From a candidate division WOR-3 bacterium (GTDB lineage Bacteria; Hydrothermota; Hydrothermia; LBFQ01; DSFT01): DNA of 64,000 nt. This document shows, in pieces, positions 7,828-21,202 of this stretch (position 1 is its first letter; every line of letters starts with the position of its first letter). Both the position numbers and the translations under genes were made by a program. The notes below the pieces were generated by a model, which was given only the letters and a program-made list of their open reading frames with translations, made no database searches and was not told the origin of the DNA. Where the stretch lies: assembly GCA_039802865.1 (NCBI GenBank), contig JBDRXL010000005.1, positions 6,099 through 70,098 of the forward strand. The letters are read 5' to 3'.

Positions 7828-7830
7828 AGG

Positions 7831-7922
7831 CGGAGAGGGAGGGATTTGAACCCTCGTCCCAACCTTTTAAGTTGGGAAAAGGCTTAGCAAGCCCCCGCCT
7901 TCGACCGCTCGGCCACCTCTCC
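7831..7922 (-). tRNA. tRNA-Ser(GCT), long variable arm, CCA not encoded
   Basis: Minus strand folds as GGAGAGG/CCTCTCC acceptor, GGGGC-TTGCTAA-GCCTT anticodon arm, CCCAAC/GTTGGG variable arm, GAGGG-TTCAAAT-CCCTC T arm, discriminator G. Confidence 0.93.
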
Positions 7923-14268: not shown

Positions 14269-14280
14269 AGTTTGAAAATT

Positions 14281-16065
14281 TTAAAGAACTGCTTGTAATT
14301 CAACTAAATCCTTATAAATCTCACACCTCTTTAATAACTCTTCATGTTTTCCAACATCTACAATTTTTCCATCCTTCATAACAACAATTTTATCTGTAAA
14401 TAAAATAGAGCTAATTCTATGAGTGATTATAATAGCGGTTTTATTATATAAAAACTTTTCAAGTGCTTGAATAATTTTTTCTTCACTTTGAGCATCTACA
14501 TTACTTGTAGGCTCATCTAATAGTATAATTTCAGGTTCTCTTAAAATTGCCCTTGCTATGGTAAGTCTTTGTCTTTGACCCCCAGATAAGTTTAACCCCC
14601 CTTCTGAAATTTTATAAAAATACTTATTTGGCAAACTTTCTATAAAATCATCTATATTTGCTAATCTGCAAGCATATTCAACTTTATCTAAGCTAATATG
14701 CTTTCCAAGTGTTAAATTATCATAAATAGAACCTTCAAAGAGAAATGGCTCTTGTGGAACAAATGCTATTTTCTCTCTATAACTTTCAATATCATAATCC
14801 CATAAATCAATGTTATCTATAAGAATTTTTCCAGTTGTTGGCTTTAAAAGTCCTGCTATAATTTCAATAAGTGTAGTTTTTCCTGCTCCTGAAAGTCCAA
14901 CTATTCCTACTTTTTCACCTCTTTTTATAGTTAAATTTATATCTTTTAAAATCAATTTATCACCATAATAAAAACTAACATTTTCCAAAACAATTTTCTC
15001 TTTCAACCTTTCAAACTTAATAATTCCACCCCTTGGCTCATCTTCTACATTCAAAAATTCAAGTGTTCTCTTATAAACAGAAATTCCCCTTTGAATATGA
15101 CTATTTGCCTTAAAAATCCTCTTTATTGGACTAATACTTGAAACAATTAAAATAAGAAAAACTATAAACTGGTCACTTGTTATTATTGATTTAGTAAAAA
15201 CCGCATTTGATATATAAATTAAAAATAAAATTATTGGAATTGAAACAACAAATTCAGAAAAATTAGAAGAGAAACTACCAAGTGCTTCTAACTTAACAGA
15301 TGAAAGAAAATAATTCTTTGAAATTTTATTAAATTTTTCACTTTCAATATTTTGATTTGAAAATATCTTAATCACTTTTATACCCCTTACAACAGAATTA
15401 ATATAAGAACTAATTTGAGCCATATTTTGATTCAATTTATTCCAGCGATAATTCATAGCTTTTGAAATTAAAAAAAGTAAAATCCCAAGTGGAATAGCTA
15501 TTAAAATTCCAAAAATTAAAAGATTAAAAGCAATTACAATACAAATTGATAAATAAACAATAAGTCTTACAAAAGAAAATATAAATTCAAAAATTCCTTC
15601 CGTTAAAGAACCTTTCAATAACTTAACATCATTTACAAATCTACTTAAAATTTCACCACTACTATTTGTATTTATCCAATAAACTGGAAGTTTTACAAGC
15701 TTTAAAAACATCTTATTTCTCAATTCCATTATGATTTTCTCCTCTGTATAACTAACAATTAAATCCTTAACAAATAAAATTAAAAATTTTAAGAAAAATA
15801 TAGCAAATGTTAAAATTGCAAGTCTTAAAATTGCAGTTTTTGGTTCCACTTCAAAAAATATATCTTTTATTATTTCATCTAAAAATTCAAGCTCCTTAAC
15901 ATTTGAAAAAATTCTTGGTGCTTCTTGACTATTTAAAATAATTCTTAAAGCAATTGGTAAAGAAGTAAAAGAAATACTTTCAACAATTGATGCCAAAAAT
16001 ACTAAAATTATTAAGAGAAATATACTTAATTTTCTTGATAATAAAAATTTCAAAAATTCTCTCAT
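14281..16065 (-). CDS. ABC exporter, fused permease/ATPase (MsbA-like)
   Basis: Transmembrane N-half, GLSGAGKTT, LSGGQRQR, LLDEPTSNVD, ITHR. Confidence 0.9.
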   Translation of the reverse strand: MREFLKFLLSRKLSIFLLIILVFLASIVESISFTSLPIALRIILNSQEAPRIFSNVKELEFLDEIIKDIFFEVEPKTAILRLAILTFAIFFLKFLILFVKDLIVSYTEEKIIMELRNKMFLKLVKLPVYWINTNSSGEILSRFVNDVKLLKGSLTEGIFEFIFSFVRLIVYLSICIVIAFNLLIFGILIAIPLGILLFLISKAMNYRWNKLNQNMAQISSYINSVVRGIKVIKIFSNQNIESEKFNKISKNYFLSSVKLEALGSFSSNFSEFVVSIPIILFLIYISNAVFTKSIITSDQFIVFLILIVSSISPIKRIFKANSHIQRGISVYKRTLEFLNVEDEPRGGIIKFERLKEKIVLENVSFYYGDKLILKDINLTIKRGEKVGIVGLSGAGKTTLIEIIAGLLKPTTGKILIDNIDLWDYDIESYREKIAFVPQEPFLFEGSIYDNLTLGKHISLDKVEYACRLANIDDFIESLPNKYFYKISEGGLNLSGGQRQRLTIARAILREPEIILLDEPTSNVDAQSEEKIIQALEKFLYNKTAIIITHRISSILFTDKIVVMKDGKIVDVGKHEELLKRCEIYKDLVELQAVL

Positions 16066-17117
16066 ATTTTCAAAAACATAAAAATTAAAGCTTCCAAAAC
16101 TATTACTACAATTATTAAAATTTCAAGAAATTCAAGCCTTCTATGTGAAACTTGGGCACTTAAAAAGTTATATATCTCAAATAATGTTCTTTCTTTACTA
16201 TCTATACTTCTTTGCCAGCTATATGCTCCTAAAATTTCAAGCATTTTTGAATAAATTTTTGCAAAATAAGAATCTTCAATAATTTTAAGACTATTTAAAA
16301 TCATTTCTTTTGCTTCAGTAATTTCATTATATAGCAATAGCAATCTCTTTAAAACTCTTTGATATTTTGGATATTCAAAAATTGAGCCTCTAAAATGCTC
16401 TATGGTATTATAAGTCTCATCAAGAACACTATCTAAATAACTATCATAATATCTTAATTCTAATAATTGAGCATTAGCAAACTCTATTAAATCCGGAACA
16501 TCCATAATTCCATCAGGTTCATATATAAAACTACTATCCCAACTTAAAATTACTAAATCTTCGTCAGAATATGAAAATTTATTTCTTAATAAACTACTTT
16601 GAGTTTGCTCACTTAAATTATATTTTTCACCAAGTAATAACTTAGCAATATCAATTTCTTCAAGAACTTCATAACTTTTCAGTTTCCTATCAAAATTTTG
16701 AACATAAACAATTGTATAATCCTCATAATCACTATAAATAGAAGGTTTTTTCAAGCAAAATTTATATTGCTCAAATACCTTATTTAAGTAAATTTTTGAA
16801 ATTTCATCAACATCTTCACCTTCAAGAATTTCTCTAAAAACTTCATATAATTTCTCAACCCTCATATTTTCCAAGGAAATTTTTAAAATTATACTAATTG
16901 CTCCAAATTCATAAAATTTTGCAAATACTTGTGTATTTAAATTTTTAAATAAAATTTCTTCAAAAAATAAAATAGCAGGCGGATTTCTAAAATATACTAA
17001 TTTTTTACCAAATTTTTTTGATATTTCTGCTCTTGCTGTTTGAATTTTAGATAAATCTATTTCACTTGCAACATCATAAATTCTATATGTTAAAATTGAA
17101 CCTCTTAATATCTTCAT
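16062..17117 (-). CDS. Conserved hypothetical protein with a C-terminal TM helix (RMD1/DUF155-like, tentative)
   Basis: 351-aa ORF coupled by ATGA overlaps; ends RRLEFLEILIIVVIVLE. Confidence 0.55.
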   Translation of the reverse strand: MKILRGSILTYRIYDVASEIDLSKIQTARAEISKKFGKKLVYFRNPPAILFFEEILFKNLNTQVFAKFYEFGAISIILKISLENMRVEKLYEVFREILEGEDVDEISKIYLNKVFEQYKFCLKKPSIYSDYEDYTIVYVQNFDRKLKSYEVLEEIDIAKLLLGEKYNLSEQTQSSLLRNKFSYSDEDLVILSWDSSFIYEPDGIMDVPDLIEFANAQLLELRYYDSYLDSVLDETYNTIEHFRGSIFEYPKYQRVLKRLLLLYNEITEAKEMILNSLKIIEDSYFAKIYSKMLEILGAYSWQRSIDSKERTLFEIYNFLSAQVSHRRLEFLEILIIVVIVLEALIFMFLKI

Positions 17118-19087
17118 TTCTTTAAAATTTTCTTTATAACTTCCTTTGCCTTTTTAAAGCTTTCGTAAGCAGAAGGTGGAATTTCATAACCCTTTTCTTT
17201 TAGTTTATTGAGTAAATCTATTTGTTTTTGAGTAGGTTTTAAATGTTTTTCTATCCATTTTAGTAATTTCTTTTGACTTTTTAATGTTTTTTCATCCAAT
17301 TCTAAATTTAATTCCTTAGCTAATTTTTGGGCCATTTCTATTTGTTTTTGAGTAGGGGGTTTATTTTCATCAAGCCATTTTGATAATTTCCTTTTATCAT
17401 TTTTAATTTCTTCACTAAGCTCAATGTTTAAATCCTTAGAGATTTTTTGAGCAAAATTTATTTGCTTTTCACTTGGTTTATTTTCTTTTATCTTTTTTTG
17501 TATATCTTTTAACTTTTCATAAATTTCCTGTGCTACTTTTTTCCAATCAAGTTTCCCCTCCTCTACTAAATCAAGTTTCTCTTCCATTTTTGCAGTAAAA
17601 TTATAATCAATTACCCAATTATATTCTTTATTAAGCCAATCTATCAATTTTTCACCAAGTTCAGTAGGGTAAAATACACCATTTTTTAGCTTTACATATT
17701 TTCTTTGTTTTAATGTTTTAATAATTTGAGCATATGTTGAAGGTCTTCCAATTGAAAGTTTTTCAAGCATTTTAATTAAAGAGCCTTCTGTATATCTTGG
17801 TGGTGGTTGAGTTTGTTTTTCTAATAATTCAACTTTGAAATTATTTAAAACTTCATTTGTTTTTAAATCTGGAATAATAACCATTTCAGGTAAATCATAA
17901 AGCTTTCTCCAACCATCAAATATAATATATTTACCTTGAGCTATCAATTTATAATTACCTGCTTTTATAATAACATTTACCTTTTTCCAGATTGCACTTT
18001 CCATTTGGCTTGCTATTGTTCTATTCCAAATAAGCTCATAAACTTTAAGAACTTTTAAAGGTAAATTTAATTTCTTCGGTTCTCTATTTGGACTTATAAT
18101 AGATGGTCTAATTGCTTCATGGGCTTCTTGTGCAAACTTTTTTGATTTAAAAACTCTTATTTTCTTTGGAACATATTCCTCACCCATATTATGCTTAATA
18201 TATCCCCTTATTTTCACAATTATATTCTCATTTATCTTCACACTATCCGTTCTATGATATGTAATATAACCATTCTCATATAGAAATTGAGCAATATTCA
18301 TAGTTTCTTCTGGACTAATTTTTAAAATTTTACTAGCATCCTCTTGAAGCGTAGCGGTTCTATATGGAGCAGGAGGACTTTCCTTTTCTTCTATTTCATT
18401 TATAGAATAAACAATATGCTCACTATTTTTAATTTCTTGAAAAATTTTTTCCGCCTCTTCTTTATTATATATATTTTCAGTAAGTTTTGCTACAAATTCT
18501 AAATTTCCTTTTTTATAAATTACTTGAATTTGATAATATGTTTTAGGCTTAAAATTCCTAATTTCCCTCTCACGCTCAACAATTAACCTTAAAGCTGGAC
18601 TTTGAACTCTACCCACTGATAATTTTCCTCCTAAGGTTTTACTTGCTAATGGCGATAAAAAATAACCTACAATTCTATCTATAACTCTTCTTGCAAATTG
18701 AGAATAAACCCTATTATAATCTATATCTCTTGGGTTTTTAAGGGCATTTTTTATTTCATCTTCAATTATTGCATGTAATTCAATCCTTTTATAATTTTTG
18801 GGCTTTGTTCTATCAATAATATGATAAGCAATTGCCTCACCTTCCCTATCAGGGTCCGTTGATATATATACAATTTCTGCTTTTTTAACAATTTGCTTTA
18901 ATTCATTTATAATTTTTGATTTTCCTTTTATAGGAATAAAGAACATTTTAAAATCATTAAAATCTATACCAATTTTATCTTCTGGCAAATCTACAATATG
19001 CCCAAGCGTTGCTTTTATAAGATAGCCTTTTAAAAATTTACTAATTGTTTTAGCTTTTGATGGACTTTCAACAATAATCAACTTCAT
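17114..19087 (-). CDS. topA: DNA topoisomerase I (type IA)
   Basis: LIIVESPSKAK, TDPDREGE, SVGRVQS, ITYHRTDS, AHEAIRP, IGRPSTY. Confidence 0.95.
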   Translation of the reverse strand: MKLIIVESPSKAKTISKFLKGYLIKATLGHIVDLPEDKIGIDFNDFKMFFIPIKGKSKIINELKQIVKKAEIVYISTDPDREGEAIAYHIIDRTKPKNYKRIELHAIIEDEIKNALKNPRDIDYNRVYSQFARRVIDRIVGYFLSPLASKTLGGKLSVGRVQSPALRLIVEREREIRNFKPKTYYQIQVIYKKGNLEFVAKLTENIYNKEEAEKIFQEIKNSEHIVYSINEIEEKESPPAPYRTATLQEDASKILKISPEETMNIAQFLYENGYITYHRTDSVKINENIIVKIRGYIKHNMGEEYVPKKIRVFKSKKFAQEAHEAIRPSIISPNREPKKLNLPLKVLKVYELIWNRTIASQMESAIWKKVNVIIKAGNYKLIAQGKYIIFDGWRKLYDLPEMVIIPDLKTNEVLNNFKVELLEKQTQPPPRYTEGSLIKMLEKLSIGRPSTYAQIIKTLKQRKYVKLKNGVFYPTELGEKLIDWLNKEYNWVIDYNFTAKMEEKLDLVEEGKLDWKKVAQEIYEKLKDIQKKIKENKPSEKQINFAQKISKDLNIELSEEIKNDKRKLSKWLDENKPPTQKQIEMAQKLAKELNLELDEKTLKSQKKLLKWIEKHLKPTQKQIDLLNKLKEKGYEIPPSAYESFKKAKEVIKKILKK

Positions 19088-19989
19088 AGTTTTAAAATAT
19101 CATCTAAAACATGCTCATTAATATTTCCACCACTTAATATAAACATACCCTTAGAGATATTAACTTTTTGAAATAAAAAAACCGCTAAACTAATAGCTCC
19201 CGCTCCCTCCAATATAAAACCTAAATTATAATATGCCCATTTAATGGCTTCTTTAATTTCTTCCTCACTTACTAAAATAACATCTTCTAATTTTTCTTTT
19301 AATATATTAAATGTTAAATTGCTTGGATATTTTAACTTTATACCATCTGCAAGTGTTTCCTTTGGTTCAATTTCTACAATTTTATTACTTTTAAATGAAT
19401 AATAAAAGCTTGGAGCATTTTCAGATACAACTCCATAAATTTTAACATTTGGTTTTTTCTCCTTAATATATAATGAAATTCCACTTGCAAGTCCTCCACC
19501 CCCAATTGGTATAAATAAATATTCAAAATCATAATTTTCAATTTCTAATCCAATAGTGCTTTGACCCTCAATAATATCTAAATCATCATATGGATGAACA
19601 AATAATAAATTCTCATTTTCAGATAATTTTTTAGCATAGTTTAAGCTTTCATTTAAATGATTTCCATAAAAAATTGGCTCATATCCATAATTTCTAATTT
19701 TATTAACTTTTATTTGAGGGGTATTTTCAGGTATAATAATTTTCACATTTTTGATATTTAAATCAGAACAAACTTTTGCAACTGCTTGTGCATGATTTCC
19801 ACTTGATGCACAAATAACTCCATTTAAATTATTTAAATTTTTTAAAATTTTATTATAGGCACCACGGGGTTTAAATGAACCTGATTTTTGCAGATTTTCA
19901 AGCTTAAAATAAAAATTTTTATAACTTATGACTGGGGTTTTCCTTATATAATTTTTTATTCTTTCATATGCACTTTGTGTATCTATCAT
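19084..19989 (-). CDS. PLP-dependent threonine/serine dehydratase (no ACT domain)
   Basis: KLENLQKSGSFKPRG, SSGNHAQ, PIGGGGL, LSGGN. Start placed at ATG 19989 because the track start lies inside tRNA-Val. Confidence 0.88.
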   Translation of the reverse strand: MIDTQSAYERIKNYIRKTPVISYKNFYFKLENLQKSGSFKPRGAYNKILKNLNNLNGVICASSGNHAQAVAKVCSDLNIKNVKIIIPENTPQIKVNKIRNYGYEPIFYGNHLNESLNYAKKLSENENLLFVHPYDDLDIIEGQSTIGLEIENYDFEYLFIPIGGGGLASGISLYIKEKKPNVKIYGVVSENAPSFYYSFKSNKIVEIEPKETLADGIKLKYPSNLTFNILKEKLEDVILVSEEEIKEAIKWAYYNLGFILEGAGAISLAVFLFQKVNISKGMFILSGGNINEHVLDDILKL

Positions 19990-19991
19990 AA

Positions 19992-20065
19992 TGGGCGCGC
20001 CCCGACTTGAACGGGGGACCTCCATCGTGTGAGGATGGCGCTCTTACCAGCTGAGCTACGCGCCC
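19992..20065 (-). tRNA. tRNA-Val(CAC), CCA not encoded
   Basis: GGGCGCG/CGCGCCC acceptor, GCTC/GAGC D stem, CCATC-CTCACAC-GATGG anticodon arm, GTTCAAGT T loop, discriminator A. Confidence 0.95.
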
Positions 20066-21180
20066 TTTTCTTTTAATTCCCTTAATAACTCATCCATTTC
20101 TTCCTTTATATGCCAAGGCATTTGAGCATAAACATCTTCAAATGTTGTTTCAGGTCCAGGTAAAGGTCTCTTTTCTGCTTCATCAATAGCTTTATTTAAT
20201 TCATCCTCAATCTGCTCATCTAGTTCTTTTTCCCATTCTTCATTCCAAATTCCAAGCCTTTGTAAATATAATCTTGCTCTCTTAATTGGATCCCATGTTT
20301 TTTGCCAATACTCAAGTTCTCTCGGATCTCTATACCTATCTGCTTGATCTGCTGTTGAATGAGAACCATATCTATAAGTTAAAGCTTCAATTAATACAGG
20401 TTCTTTGTTATGGGCTTTTTCAAATGCTAATTTAGTAGTAGCATAAACTGCCAAAAAGTCATTCCCATCAACATAATAACCTTCCATACCATAAGCAATT
20501 GCTTTAATTGCTATATTTTTAGAAGCATATTGTCTTTTAACAGGAACAGATATTGCCCAGTGATTATTTTGAACAAAAAATACAACTGGCGTTTTAAATA
20601 CCCCTGCCATTGTAAGAGCAGAATGAAAATCACCTTCCGCTGTTCCTCCATCTCCTACATAAACAATTATTGCTTCATCCTTTTTTAAATAATTTATAGC
20701 CATTCCTATACCAACCGCTTGTGGAAGCTGATTTCCAACAGGACTAGAAATAGTTATAATTCTTAATTTTCTCATACCCCAATGGACTGGCATTTGTCTT
20801 GCTTTATTAACTTCCATTCTACCCATTACTTGTGCAAACATTTCAACAAGTGGATAACCTCTTACAAGATAAACTCCATGCTCTCTATGAGCAGGAAATA
20901 TCCAATCATTTTCAGGCACTGCATAACCACTTGCAACAGTTGCAGCCTCTTGACCGGCAACTTCTACATAAAATAATGCTTTTCCAGAACGAGTTAAAAA
21001 CATTCCCTTTCTATCAAAAGCCCTTGTTAATTTCATATAATAATATAATGTCTTTAAATCTTCCTCGGTAAGTCCTATATCTTCTGGTGTAAAGTCAAAT
21101 AAAGGCTCTCCCTCACTTGATATAAATCTTATAGGTTCATCTGTAAATGGTTGAATATAATTTAAAGTTTTTTCAGTCAT
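20056..21180 (-). CDS. pdhA: 2-oxoacid (pyruvate or branched-chain) dehydrogenase E1 alpha subunit
   Basis: GQEA, GNQLPQAVG, GDGGTAEGDF..N (ThDP motif), YRYGSHSTAD. Confidence 0.85.
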   Translation of the reverse strand: MTEKTLNYIQPFTDEPIRFISSEGEPLFDFTPEDIGLTEEDLKTLYYYMKLTRAFDRKGMFLTRSGKALFYVEVAGQEAATVASGYAVPENDWIFPAHREHGVYLVRGYPLVEMFAQVMGRMEVNKARQMPVHWGMRKLRIITISSPVGNQLPQAVGIGMAINYLKKDEAIIVYVGDGGTAEGDFHSALTMAGVFKTPVVFFVQNNHWAISVPVKRQYASKNIAIKAIAYGMEGYYVDGNDFLAVYATTKLAFEKAHNKEPVLIEALTYRYGSHSTADQADRYRDPRELEYWQKTWDPIKRARLYLQRLGIWNEEWEKELDEQIEDELNKAIDEAEKRPLPGPETTFEDVYAQMPWHIKEEMDELLRELKEKGA

Positions 21181-21195
21181 AGTGAAAATTATAAA
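21171..21195 (-). repeat. Direct repeat copy (-10 box, start codon and first codons of pdhA); partner at 23223-23247
   Basis: Minus strand TTTATAATTTTCAC-TA-TGACTGAAA vs TTTATAATTTTCAC-AT-TGACTGAAA, 23/25 identical. Confidence 0.8.
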
Positions 21196-21202
21196 GTAGA
21201 AT

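Follow-up and report, generated by a model that had tools for sequence, protein, structure and literature searches.

The stop codon of a genuine protein-coding gene, pdhA, sits in a tRNA gene on the same strand, that of tRNA-Val(CAC). The 3' end of pdhA reads ...GAA AAG GGC GCG TAG, with TAG at 20058-20056. The tRNA starts on the third base of AAG; its bases 2-7 are the codons GGC GCG (Gly-Ala), and U8-A9-G10 is the stop TAG. An initial annotation had placed the pdhA stop within tRNA-Val, with a 10-nt overlap at 20056-20065, and its coordinates and phase agree exactly with the sequence and with ARAGORN. Comparison with related genomes indicates that the overlap is real and old, and that pdhA and the tRNA are both under selection. 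The best explanation, and in our judgement the probable one, is a single transcript from which the tRNA is cut out, with PdhA and the tRNA made sequentially and the overlap permitted by a slow protein-only RNase P (HARP) and by the rarity of the codon that the tRNA reads.

The window, by which we mean the whole stretch of 64,000 nucleotides that was analysed, belongs to a 54-contig metagenome-assembled genome (MAG) of 1.64 Mb with a GC content of 27.7% and a completeness of 92%. The host is an uncultured hot-spring WOR-3 bacterium of the class Hydrothermia. Every feature of the pdhA-tRNA-Val locus lies on the minus strand:

21187..21196, minus strand: leaderless promoter core of pdhA (CTTTATAATT), 7 nt 5' of the ATG at 21180 (motif scan).
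20056..21180, minus strand: pdhA-like gene, 2-oxoacid dehydrogenase E1 alpha subunit, 374 aa, C-terminus ...ELKEKGA-TAG (ORF list, Pfam, NCBIfam).
20056..20065, minus strand: 10-nt overlap of pdhA and tRNA (sequence; same phase in L004-L007 and L150-L156).
19992..20065, minus strand: tRNA-Val(CAC), 74 nt, without encoded CCA, without a recognisable promoter of its own, A at position -1 (ARAGORN, covariance model).
19990..19991, minus strand: spacer TT, 2 nt, from the discriminator A19992 to the next start codon (sequence).
19084..19989, minus strand: threonine/serine dehydratase-like gene, PALP fold, 301 aa, ATG at 19989 (Pfam, NCBIfam).
17114..19087, minus strand: topA, DNA topoisomerase I (Pfam Topoisom_bac, 8e-125).
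14281..17117, minus strand: 351-aa protein of unknown function and ABC transporter, joined via 4-nt overlaps (ORF list, Pfam).
14277..14286, minus strand: next exact promoter core on this strand, at the start of the mgtE unit, marking the end of the pdhA-tRNA-topA unit (motif scan).

Parsed by hand, tRNA-Val(CAC) is a canonical cloverleaf: its acceptor stem has 7 bp, the D, anticodon and T arms are all present, the T-loop reads UUCRA, and U8, U33 and a discriminator base are in place. A covariance model built for the purpose on 31 of the other tRNAs in this genome gives it 75.1 bits (E = 4e-19, positions 1-73 of 73, ends unchanged), on par with any other tRNA of the genome. Rfam RF00005 gave no match for the tRNA-Val(CAC) of the window nor for its orthologues in L004, L005 and L007, and in the same search the sister-genus orthologue (86% identical) scored 71.1 bits and the genome's tRNA-Gly(CCC) 70.1 bits; the silence of this model on the tRNA-Val(CAC) of the genus is probably a tool quirk. 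Two base pairs have changed in a compensatory manner inside the overlap itself: pair 6-67 from C-G to U-A in one species, where the pdhA codon GCG (Ala) becomes GTG (Val), and pair 4-69 from C-G to U-A in two species, where GGC becomes GGT and the change is silent in pdhA. The overlap therefore evolves by the rules of the tRNA. Pair 53-61 has changed from G-C to U-A in another species of the genus, the anticodon and T stems show further compensatory changes when the whole order is compared, and the anticodon loop CUCACAC/U is kept, along with all tRNA identity positions, from the genus up to the order. The gene is the sole CAC copy in the genome, which also encodes UAC and GAC isoacceptors, and its position -1 is an A in 5/5 species. 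Computed folding has the tRNA fold autonomously inside the AT-rich transcript, so that the ribosome would be the only competitor for its 5' strand.

The pdhA product matches Pfam E1_dh at 2.3e-86 and NCBIfam TIGR03181 (PDH E1 alpha) at 378.5 bits, the latter under the model cut-off of 411. In comparisons within the genus its dN/dS is 0.02-0.08 at a dS of 0.5-1.6, which amounts to strong purifying selection and rules out a pseudogene. The junction with tRNA-Val(CAC) has an identical phase, ..NNG GGN GNG TAG, in 5/5 species-level genomes of the genus and, given the dS between species that share it, the overlap has survived approximately one substitution per synonymous site. A scan with a 30-mer taken from the tRNA recovered the same junction from 7/8 metagenome contigs. 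Conservation of the overlap in relatives, which the initial annotation had named as a check, is thus confirmed within the genus and stops short of the sister genus, from which the overlap is absent. TAG occupies positions 8-10 in 30/46 tRNAs of the genome, and any ORF entering in that frame therefore terminates there; on the comparative data, chance does not account for a phase conserved in five species and in seven of the eight contigs. The pdhA C-terminus (...ELKEKGA) is no more than two residues apart from that of the sister genus (...ELKERGVR), and hence no residues have been lost or gained at this end of the protein. Synonymous conservation rises slightly at the 3' end of the gene (6/12 codons, compared with 0.35 overall), a level that is matched by some internal windows of the gene.

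The genome has a leaderless-promoter architecture throughout, with a -10-like element a few bases 5' of the start codon. The motif CTTTAAAAT occurs at 700 exact sites genome-wide, approximately 340 of which lie 6-11 nt 5' of the start of a long ORF, and the exact 10-mer core CTTTAAAATT is found 5-10 nt 5' of 307 long ORFs versus 19 in a control taken out of frame. Of 633 promoters, 602 keep the last T of the -10 element. The pdhA promoter, CTTTATAATT, is common to all five species, and the same motif is present 5' of the sister-genus pdhA. Of the 38 tRNAs at the head of a unit, 34 have the promoter motif 8-17 nt 5' of base 1, at 14-21 bits; the four without it are Val(CAC), Gly(CCC), Arg(CCG) and Ala(CGC). 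For tRNA-Val(CAC), a mismatch scan with the core motif found no promoter motif upstream. Within the final 60 nt of pdhA the highest-scoring PWM site reaches -5.0 here and -6.1, -0.4, -0.4 and -5.6 in the remaining four species, compared with a median of -1.5 for 1150 other gene ends. Over the whole pdhA CDS of this genome the best site reaches 5.3 bits, compared with a first percentile of 10 bits for real promoters. A generic sigma-70 scan of the pdhA-tRNA interval returned 0 minus-strand sites, with 0 terminators between the genes. All of these scans being negative, the internal pdhA promoter that had been offered as a way out of the conflict between the two genes is unsupported, and tRNA-Val(CAC) is most likely made from the pdhA transcript.

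The design is not confined to this locus. The promoter-less Val(CAC), Gly(CCC) and Arg(CCG) genes are each overlapped by an upstream long ORF: for tRNA-Gly(CCC), on contig C23, this is a 245-aa ORF that overlaps in identical phase (GA-G CGG GCG TAG) in 5/5 species, and for tRNA-Arg(CCG) the overlap is 23 nt long. The fourth promoter-less gene, tRNA-Ala(CGC), lies directly 3' of the 16S rRNA gene. All four have C34 anticodons (4/4 vs 12/38, P = 0.0067), and the codons that they read are rare, at rates per 1000 of 3.2 for GUG (6% of valine codons), 5.5 for GGG, 3.2 for GCG and 0.1 for CGG. Such a low codon demand is compatible with tRNA supply as a by-product of mRNA.

Downstream of the tRNA, the most economical reading is that pdhA, tRNA-Val, the dehydratase gene, topA and two more genes would form a single transcription unit, given that the pdhA promoter is at 21196, that the next exact minus-strand motif occurs only at 14286, and that no promoter or terminator is recognised between them. 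The dehydratase matches Pfam PALP at 1e-70 and NCBIfam threonine ammonia-lyase at 282.7 bits. Its ATG is located 2 nt 3' of the tRNA discriminator, a distance that is 0 nt in L007, with a TTG start; a longer dehydratase ORF from an ATG at 20025, inside the tRNA, was rejected as it is unconserved and, in L007, stands in another frame with respect to the tRNA. The dehydratase stop and the topA start share an ATGA. In the junction sequences neither of the two genes is preceded by a visible Shine-Dalgarno sequence, and the 16S rRNA retains the anti-SD. Genome-wide, an ORF of 80 aa or more starts 0-4 nt 3' of 22/46 tRNAs, compared with 1.7% at random positions. Since the dehydratase gene and topA have no Shine-Dalgarno sequence and are coupled through ATGA, the essential topA seems dependent on initiation right 3' of the tRNA, which argues that removal of the tRNA, leaving 5'-UUAUG, is a main pathway.

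In the sister genus pdhA, tRNA-Val(CAC) and the dehydratase gene are separate units: the tRNA gene is stand-alone with its own promoter, the dehydratase gene has its own leaderless promoter, and pdhA has other genes downstream. One sister-genus pdhA ends AAA GAA AGG GGC GTG CGA TAG, a near-copy of the tRNA 5' strand GGGCGYG-TAG, and a deletion through short homology in the ancestor of the genus may have fused pdhA to the tRNA and produced the present junction. In the metagenome lineage L157 the tRNA-dehydratase-topA block is found behind an enoyl-CoA hydratase gene, the stop of which is 9-10 nt 5' of the tRNA; the embedded promoter-less tRNA is therefore more general than the overlap. A mobile-element attachment site at the tRNA was considered and rejected, given that the overlap is at the 5' end of the tRNA and fixed in five species, and that the sister genus has three separate promoter-bearing units.

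The initial annotation had RNase P cleaving a co-transcript and leaving a non-stop pdhA mRNA. A cut at the 5' end of the tRNA would indeed remove the stop codon, but the enzyme would be a different one. The RNA subunit gene rnpB, with RF00010 as the model searched genome-wide, was found in 0/7 genomes of the family versus 31-33/34 others in the class, and rnpA (PF00825) in 0/7 versus 32/34. HARP (PIN_5, PF08745) is present in 7/7 family genomes, at 135.6 bits in this one. By gene content, then, the cleaving enzyme is almost certainly other than classical RNase P. Here and in G001 an A9 run breaks the HARP reading frame, which needs an extra A or a -1 shift to be restored, and HARP would be made via slippage in both unless the two assemblies share the same error. 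The gene is intact in G002 and G004. HARP-only bacteria have so far been described for Aquificaceae, and the turnover of HARP is 10-100 times slower than that of the RNP enzyme (PMC12153264); it works best with an A at position -1 (PMC12439589). The one 3' activity reported for it cleaves 13 nt or more beyond nucleotide 72 (PMC12217051), at a site that would lie inside the downstream ORF. For RNase Z, TIGR02651 gives only a 33.7-bit match to a generic MBL hydrolase in this 92% complete genome, and none of its four HxHxDH proteins resembles RNase Z or RNase J. tmRNA is encoded in the genome.

Under the explanation that we favour, the leaderless promoter 7 nt 5' of the pdhA ATG would drive the whole unit, and the tRNA would be excised from that transcript. 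A ribosome finishing pdhA would hold the 5' acceptor strand and the D-arm of the tRNA open, and PdhA would be produced first, while ribosomes keep the junction open. When the junction is free, 5' cleavage of the folded tRNA, expected between 20066 and 20065, would leave a pdhA mRNA that ends ...GAAAA and is without a stop, and would release the tRNA and probably a near-leaderless dehydratase-topA message beginning UUAUG. Ribosomes stuck on cut messages would be rescued by tmRNA. A slow HARP that needs a folded tRNA would give ribosomes time to arrive at the TAG, and the overlap would be tolerated because the tRNA reads the rare GUG and HARP is slow. Purifying selection on pdhA shows that full-length protein is plentiful, and cleavage therefore cannot be fast relative to translation. 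The two products had been called mutually exclusive on one transcript, which is too strong: the same transcript can be translated and then cut, and sequential use is more likely.

A second reading is offered only tentatively. Here excision of the tRNA would be a one-way switch, and the family would have mitochondria-like, tRNA-punctuated leaderless expression in a free-living bacterium. During translation of pdhA the tRNA would be unfolded and the dehydratase gene and topA, being without Shine-Dalgarno sequences, would be silent; the cut by the protein-only RNase P would then kill the pdhA message, free the rare-codon tRNA and expose a 5' UUAUG for translation of dehydratase and topA. The mitochondria-like system is suggested by the tRNA-Gly CCC and tRNA-Arg CCG overlaps, the 22 abutments of tRNA and ORF, and the loss of RNP RNase P.

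It is unlikely that a weak or non-canonical promoter inside pdhA supplies most of the tRNA, in which case read-through would be minor and the overlap inconsequential for tRNA supply. An AT-rich CDS always offers -10-like hexamers, such as TATTAA in conserved Leu-Leu codons 16 nt 5' of the tRNA. A 3-mismatch CTTTTAAAAG is found at the right distance in L005 and L006, the pdhA of L006 also has an 11.8-bit site approximately 540 nt upstream, and tRNA-Ser(CGA) works with a degenerate motif of 2.6 bits. However, the candidates are unconserved across the five species, as holds also for the 11.8-bit site of L006; they score at or below the median of the 3' ends of other genes and are without the final T of the -10 element, and the generic sigma-70 scan has nothing on the minus strand. 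Nor would a promoter of its own for the tRNA lift the conflict, as had been supposed in the initial annotation: each pdhA transcript must still enter the tRNA, carries its 5' part and remains cleavable, and the conflict for pdhA persists.

Slightly more doubtful still is the idea that the tRNA-shaped element is kept mainly as a processing or stability signal rather than for decoding, and that it frees the dehydratase-topA message or caps the 3' end of the pdhA mRNA. The tRNA-Val(UAC) isoacceptor is present and can read GUG, which makes up only 6% of valine codons; the essential topA relies on initiation 2 nt 3' of the tRNA; and one metagenome lineage has the same tRNA-dehydratase-topA block behind a different gene. 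Against this, the anticodon loop and the tRNA identity positions are conserved from genus to order, the sister genus has this tRNA as a stand-alone gene under a promoter of its own, and the element scores like any other tRNA of the genome with the covariance model. The two roles, processing signal and decoding, are moreover compatible. That the overlap is an artefact, an earlier stop having been lost to an assembly or sequencing error or a decaying pdhA pseudogene having run into the tRNA, is extremely improbable: the MAG is in 54 contigs, no E1 beta gene lies next to pdhA and broken restriction-modification genes lie upstream of it, but five independent species-level MAGs, produced in different studies, and seven metagenome contigs share the junction, which excludes a sequencing error that deleted an earlier stop, and pdhA is under the purifying selection described above, ends within two residues of its sister-genus counterpart and is also found as a stand-alone gene in relatives.

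The closest bacterial precedent is the predicted selB-selC overlap, in which selC (tRNA-Sec) is nested in or partly overlaps selB in Alpha- and Gammaproteobacteria and Nitrospirae, according to bioinformatic prediction (Mukai 2021, PMC8124441). The likeness extends to a same-strand tRNA over the 3' end of an ORF, with the stop inside the tRNA (positions 46-48) in some lineages, to conservation of the overlap within lineages, and to the proposed outcome, in which tRNA processing leaves the upstream mRNA non-stop and the downstream one leaderless (PMC8124441). In contrast to selB-selC, an ordinary elongator tRNA is here combined with an unrelated metabolic enzyme; a partnership of the SelB-tRNA-Sec type is absent, and there is therefore no argument from protein-tRNA stoichiometry. 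The stop is here the universal U8-A9-G10, the design occurs two to three times in this one genome, and the host appears to be leaderless throughout and to have protein-only RNase P only.

In animal mitochondria, according to the Ojala-Montoya-Attardi model, tRNAs punctuate polycistronic transcripts with zero or few spacer bases, and their excision sets the ends of the mRNAs. The locus described here resembles this in its embedded tRNA without a promoter or terminator of its own, judged from sequence alone, in its leaderless downstream mRNAs, with the ATG 2 nt (0 nt in L007) past the tRNA, and in a cleaving RNase P that would be protein-only. It differs in belonging to a free-living bacterium in which most tRNAs have their own promoters and stand at the head of the transcript, and in which no RNase Z was found. 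Completion of the stop codon by A-addition was also considered and rejected, given that the cut ends ...GAAAA, ...AAUGA and ...AUAAA plus A give Lys or Glu codons and no stop.

Other bacterial systems share single elements of the arrangement. The E. coli thrU-tyrU-glyT-thrT-tufB operon has tRNAs and an mRNA on one promoter, parted by endonucleases (PMC12439589), but there the mRNA, which has a Shine-Dalgarno leader, follows the tRNAs after spacers, and no CDS extends over a mature tRNA. Like the Aquificaceae (Aquifex aeolicus; PMC12153264, PMC12439589), the WOR-3 family is without rnpB and rnpA and keeps PIN_5/HARP. It belongs to a different phylum, however, and in this genome position -1 is T in 23 of the 46 tRNAs and A in 14, as against A in 38/44 in Aquifex (PMC12153264, PMC12439589); unlike in Aquificaceae, the HARP gene of this genome has the A9 frame break. 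In the literature on WOR-3 we found no account of leaderless expression, HARP or tRNA overlaps.

Gene callers usually bar overlaps between CDS and tRNA, with the result that genes like pdhA are truncated or marked erroneous; here the overlap is real and selected. It provides a natural test case in which termination and tRNA 5' processing contend for the same 10 bases in an organism that relies on leaderless starts and on a slow HARP, and it allows a direct test of what non-stop messages cost, what tmRNA does and when the tRNA is excised. The selB-selC type of design, hitherto predicted in bacteria only there, is extended to ordinary tRNAs and unrelated genes. As read from the genomes, the loss of rnpB and rnpA in this WOR-3 family would make it a second bacterial lineage dependent on HARP alone, and the findings suggest convergence of a free-living lineage of thermophiles with mitochondria in the way that transcripts are punctuated.

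The arrangement in which the TAG stop codon of pdhA supplies bases 8-10 of tRNA-Val(CAC) has a second instance in the genome of the source bacterium. A 245-aa ORF, for which a Pfam search gave no match, ends in GA-G CGG GCG TAG, the last ten nucleotides of which are bases 1-10 of tRNA-Gly(CCC); each of the five species in the genus keeps this overlap (5/5). At a third tRNA, tRNA-Arg(CCG), the first 23 nt are overlapped by a 261-aa ORF, and this tRNA, like tRNA-Val(CAC), also lacks the leaderless -10-like promoter motif carried by most tRNA units of the genome. The features discussed here lie on the following contigs of the source genome:

C23:6514-7314 (L138:1501-2301 in the extracted locus), 245-aa ORF with tRNA-Gly(CCC), 10-nt overlap
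C7:6051-6124, minus strand, tRNA-Arg(CCG)
C36:4968-5381, tmRNA, tRNA-Glu(CTC) and the start of an L31-like ORF
C5:74317-74855 (L108:1394-1932 in the extracted locus), HARP gene, about 4.3 kb past the end of the window

The gene upstream of tRNA-Val(CAC) is not the same in every lineage. In a metagenome contig from a related lineage (FWWM01025764.1, L157:3371-7114), an enoyl-CoA hydratase gene takes the place of pdhA before the block of tRNA-Val, dehydratase and topA; its stop codon is located 9-10 nt upstream of the tRNA and, as at pdhA, no promoter is found between the two. The GC content of pdhA is 32-40% compared with approximately 26% in the flanking genes (window 20000-21050), no E1 beta gene adjoins it, and E1 beta-like genes are located on other contigs. 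Neither tRNA-Val(CAC) (window 19992-20065) nor its same-genus orthologues (loci L004, L005 and L007) are reported by the Rfam model RF00005, although the very same searches did report other tRNAs. Among the remaining tRNA calls, tRNA-Phe(GAA) is present in two copies with identical flanks (C3:128-201 and C4:14420-14493), and the tRNA with anticodon ATT called by ARAGORN at C23:15752-15823 looks like a diverged tRNA-Phe copy.

Genes also follow tRNAs very closely in this genome. After 22 of the 46 tRNAs a long ORF has its start codon 0-4 nt further on (expected 1.7%), as in the window, where tRNA-Ser(GCT) (7829-7922) is followed by an ATG after 3 nt, and on C36, where the tmRNA (tag ANTNYALAA), 3 nt, tRNA-Glu(CTC), 2 nt and the ATG of the L31-like ORF succeed one another. 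The 3' end of tRNA-Gly(CCC) overlaps the promoter of the next gene: the motif (GCTTTAAAATTTT) consists of the last bases of the tRNA (..G71 C72 U73) and the bases after them (L138:2295-2320; orthologous loci L139-L141), with the ATG 6-8 nt further on. None of the 46 tRNAs has an encoded CCA, and the position directly 3' of the discriminator holds T in 30 tRNAs and C in 13. RNase Z (TIGR02651) and RNase J are not detectable in the genome (92% complete), and the HxHxDH motif occurs in only four of its proteins, all generic MBL hydrolases.

At the 5' end, RNase P RNA (RF00010) is found in none of the seven genomes of the WOR-3/Hydrothermia family and in 31-33 of the 34 others of the class; for rnpA (PF00825) the counts are 0/7 and 32/34. 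A HARP (PIN_5) gene is present in all seven. In the source genome it is broken at a run of nine A (TTA-A9-CC), as is that of the related genome G001 (locus L146; CTA-A9-TC), and in both the frame is restored by a -1 shift or one additional A; the gene is unbroken in the relatives G002, G004 and G005. Because the same break is common to two, probably three, species, the cause seems to be transcriptional slippage or a programmed frameshift and not an error. The family appears to join Aquificaceae as a second lineage of bacteria that depend on protein-only RNase P.
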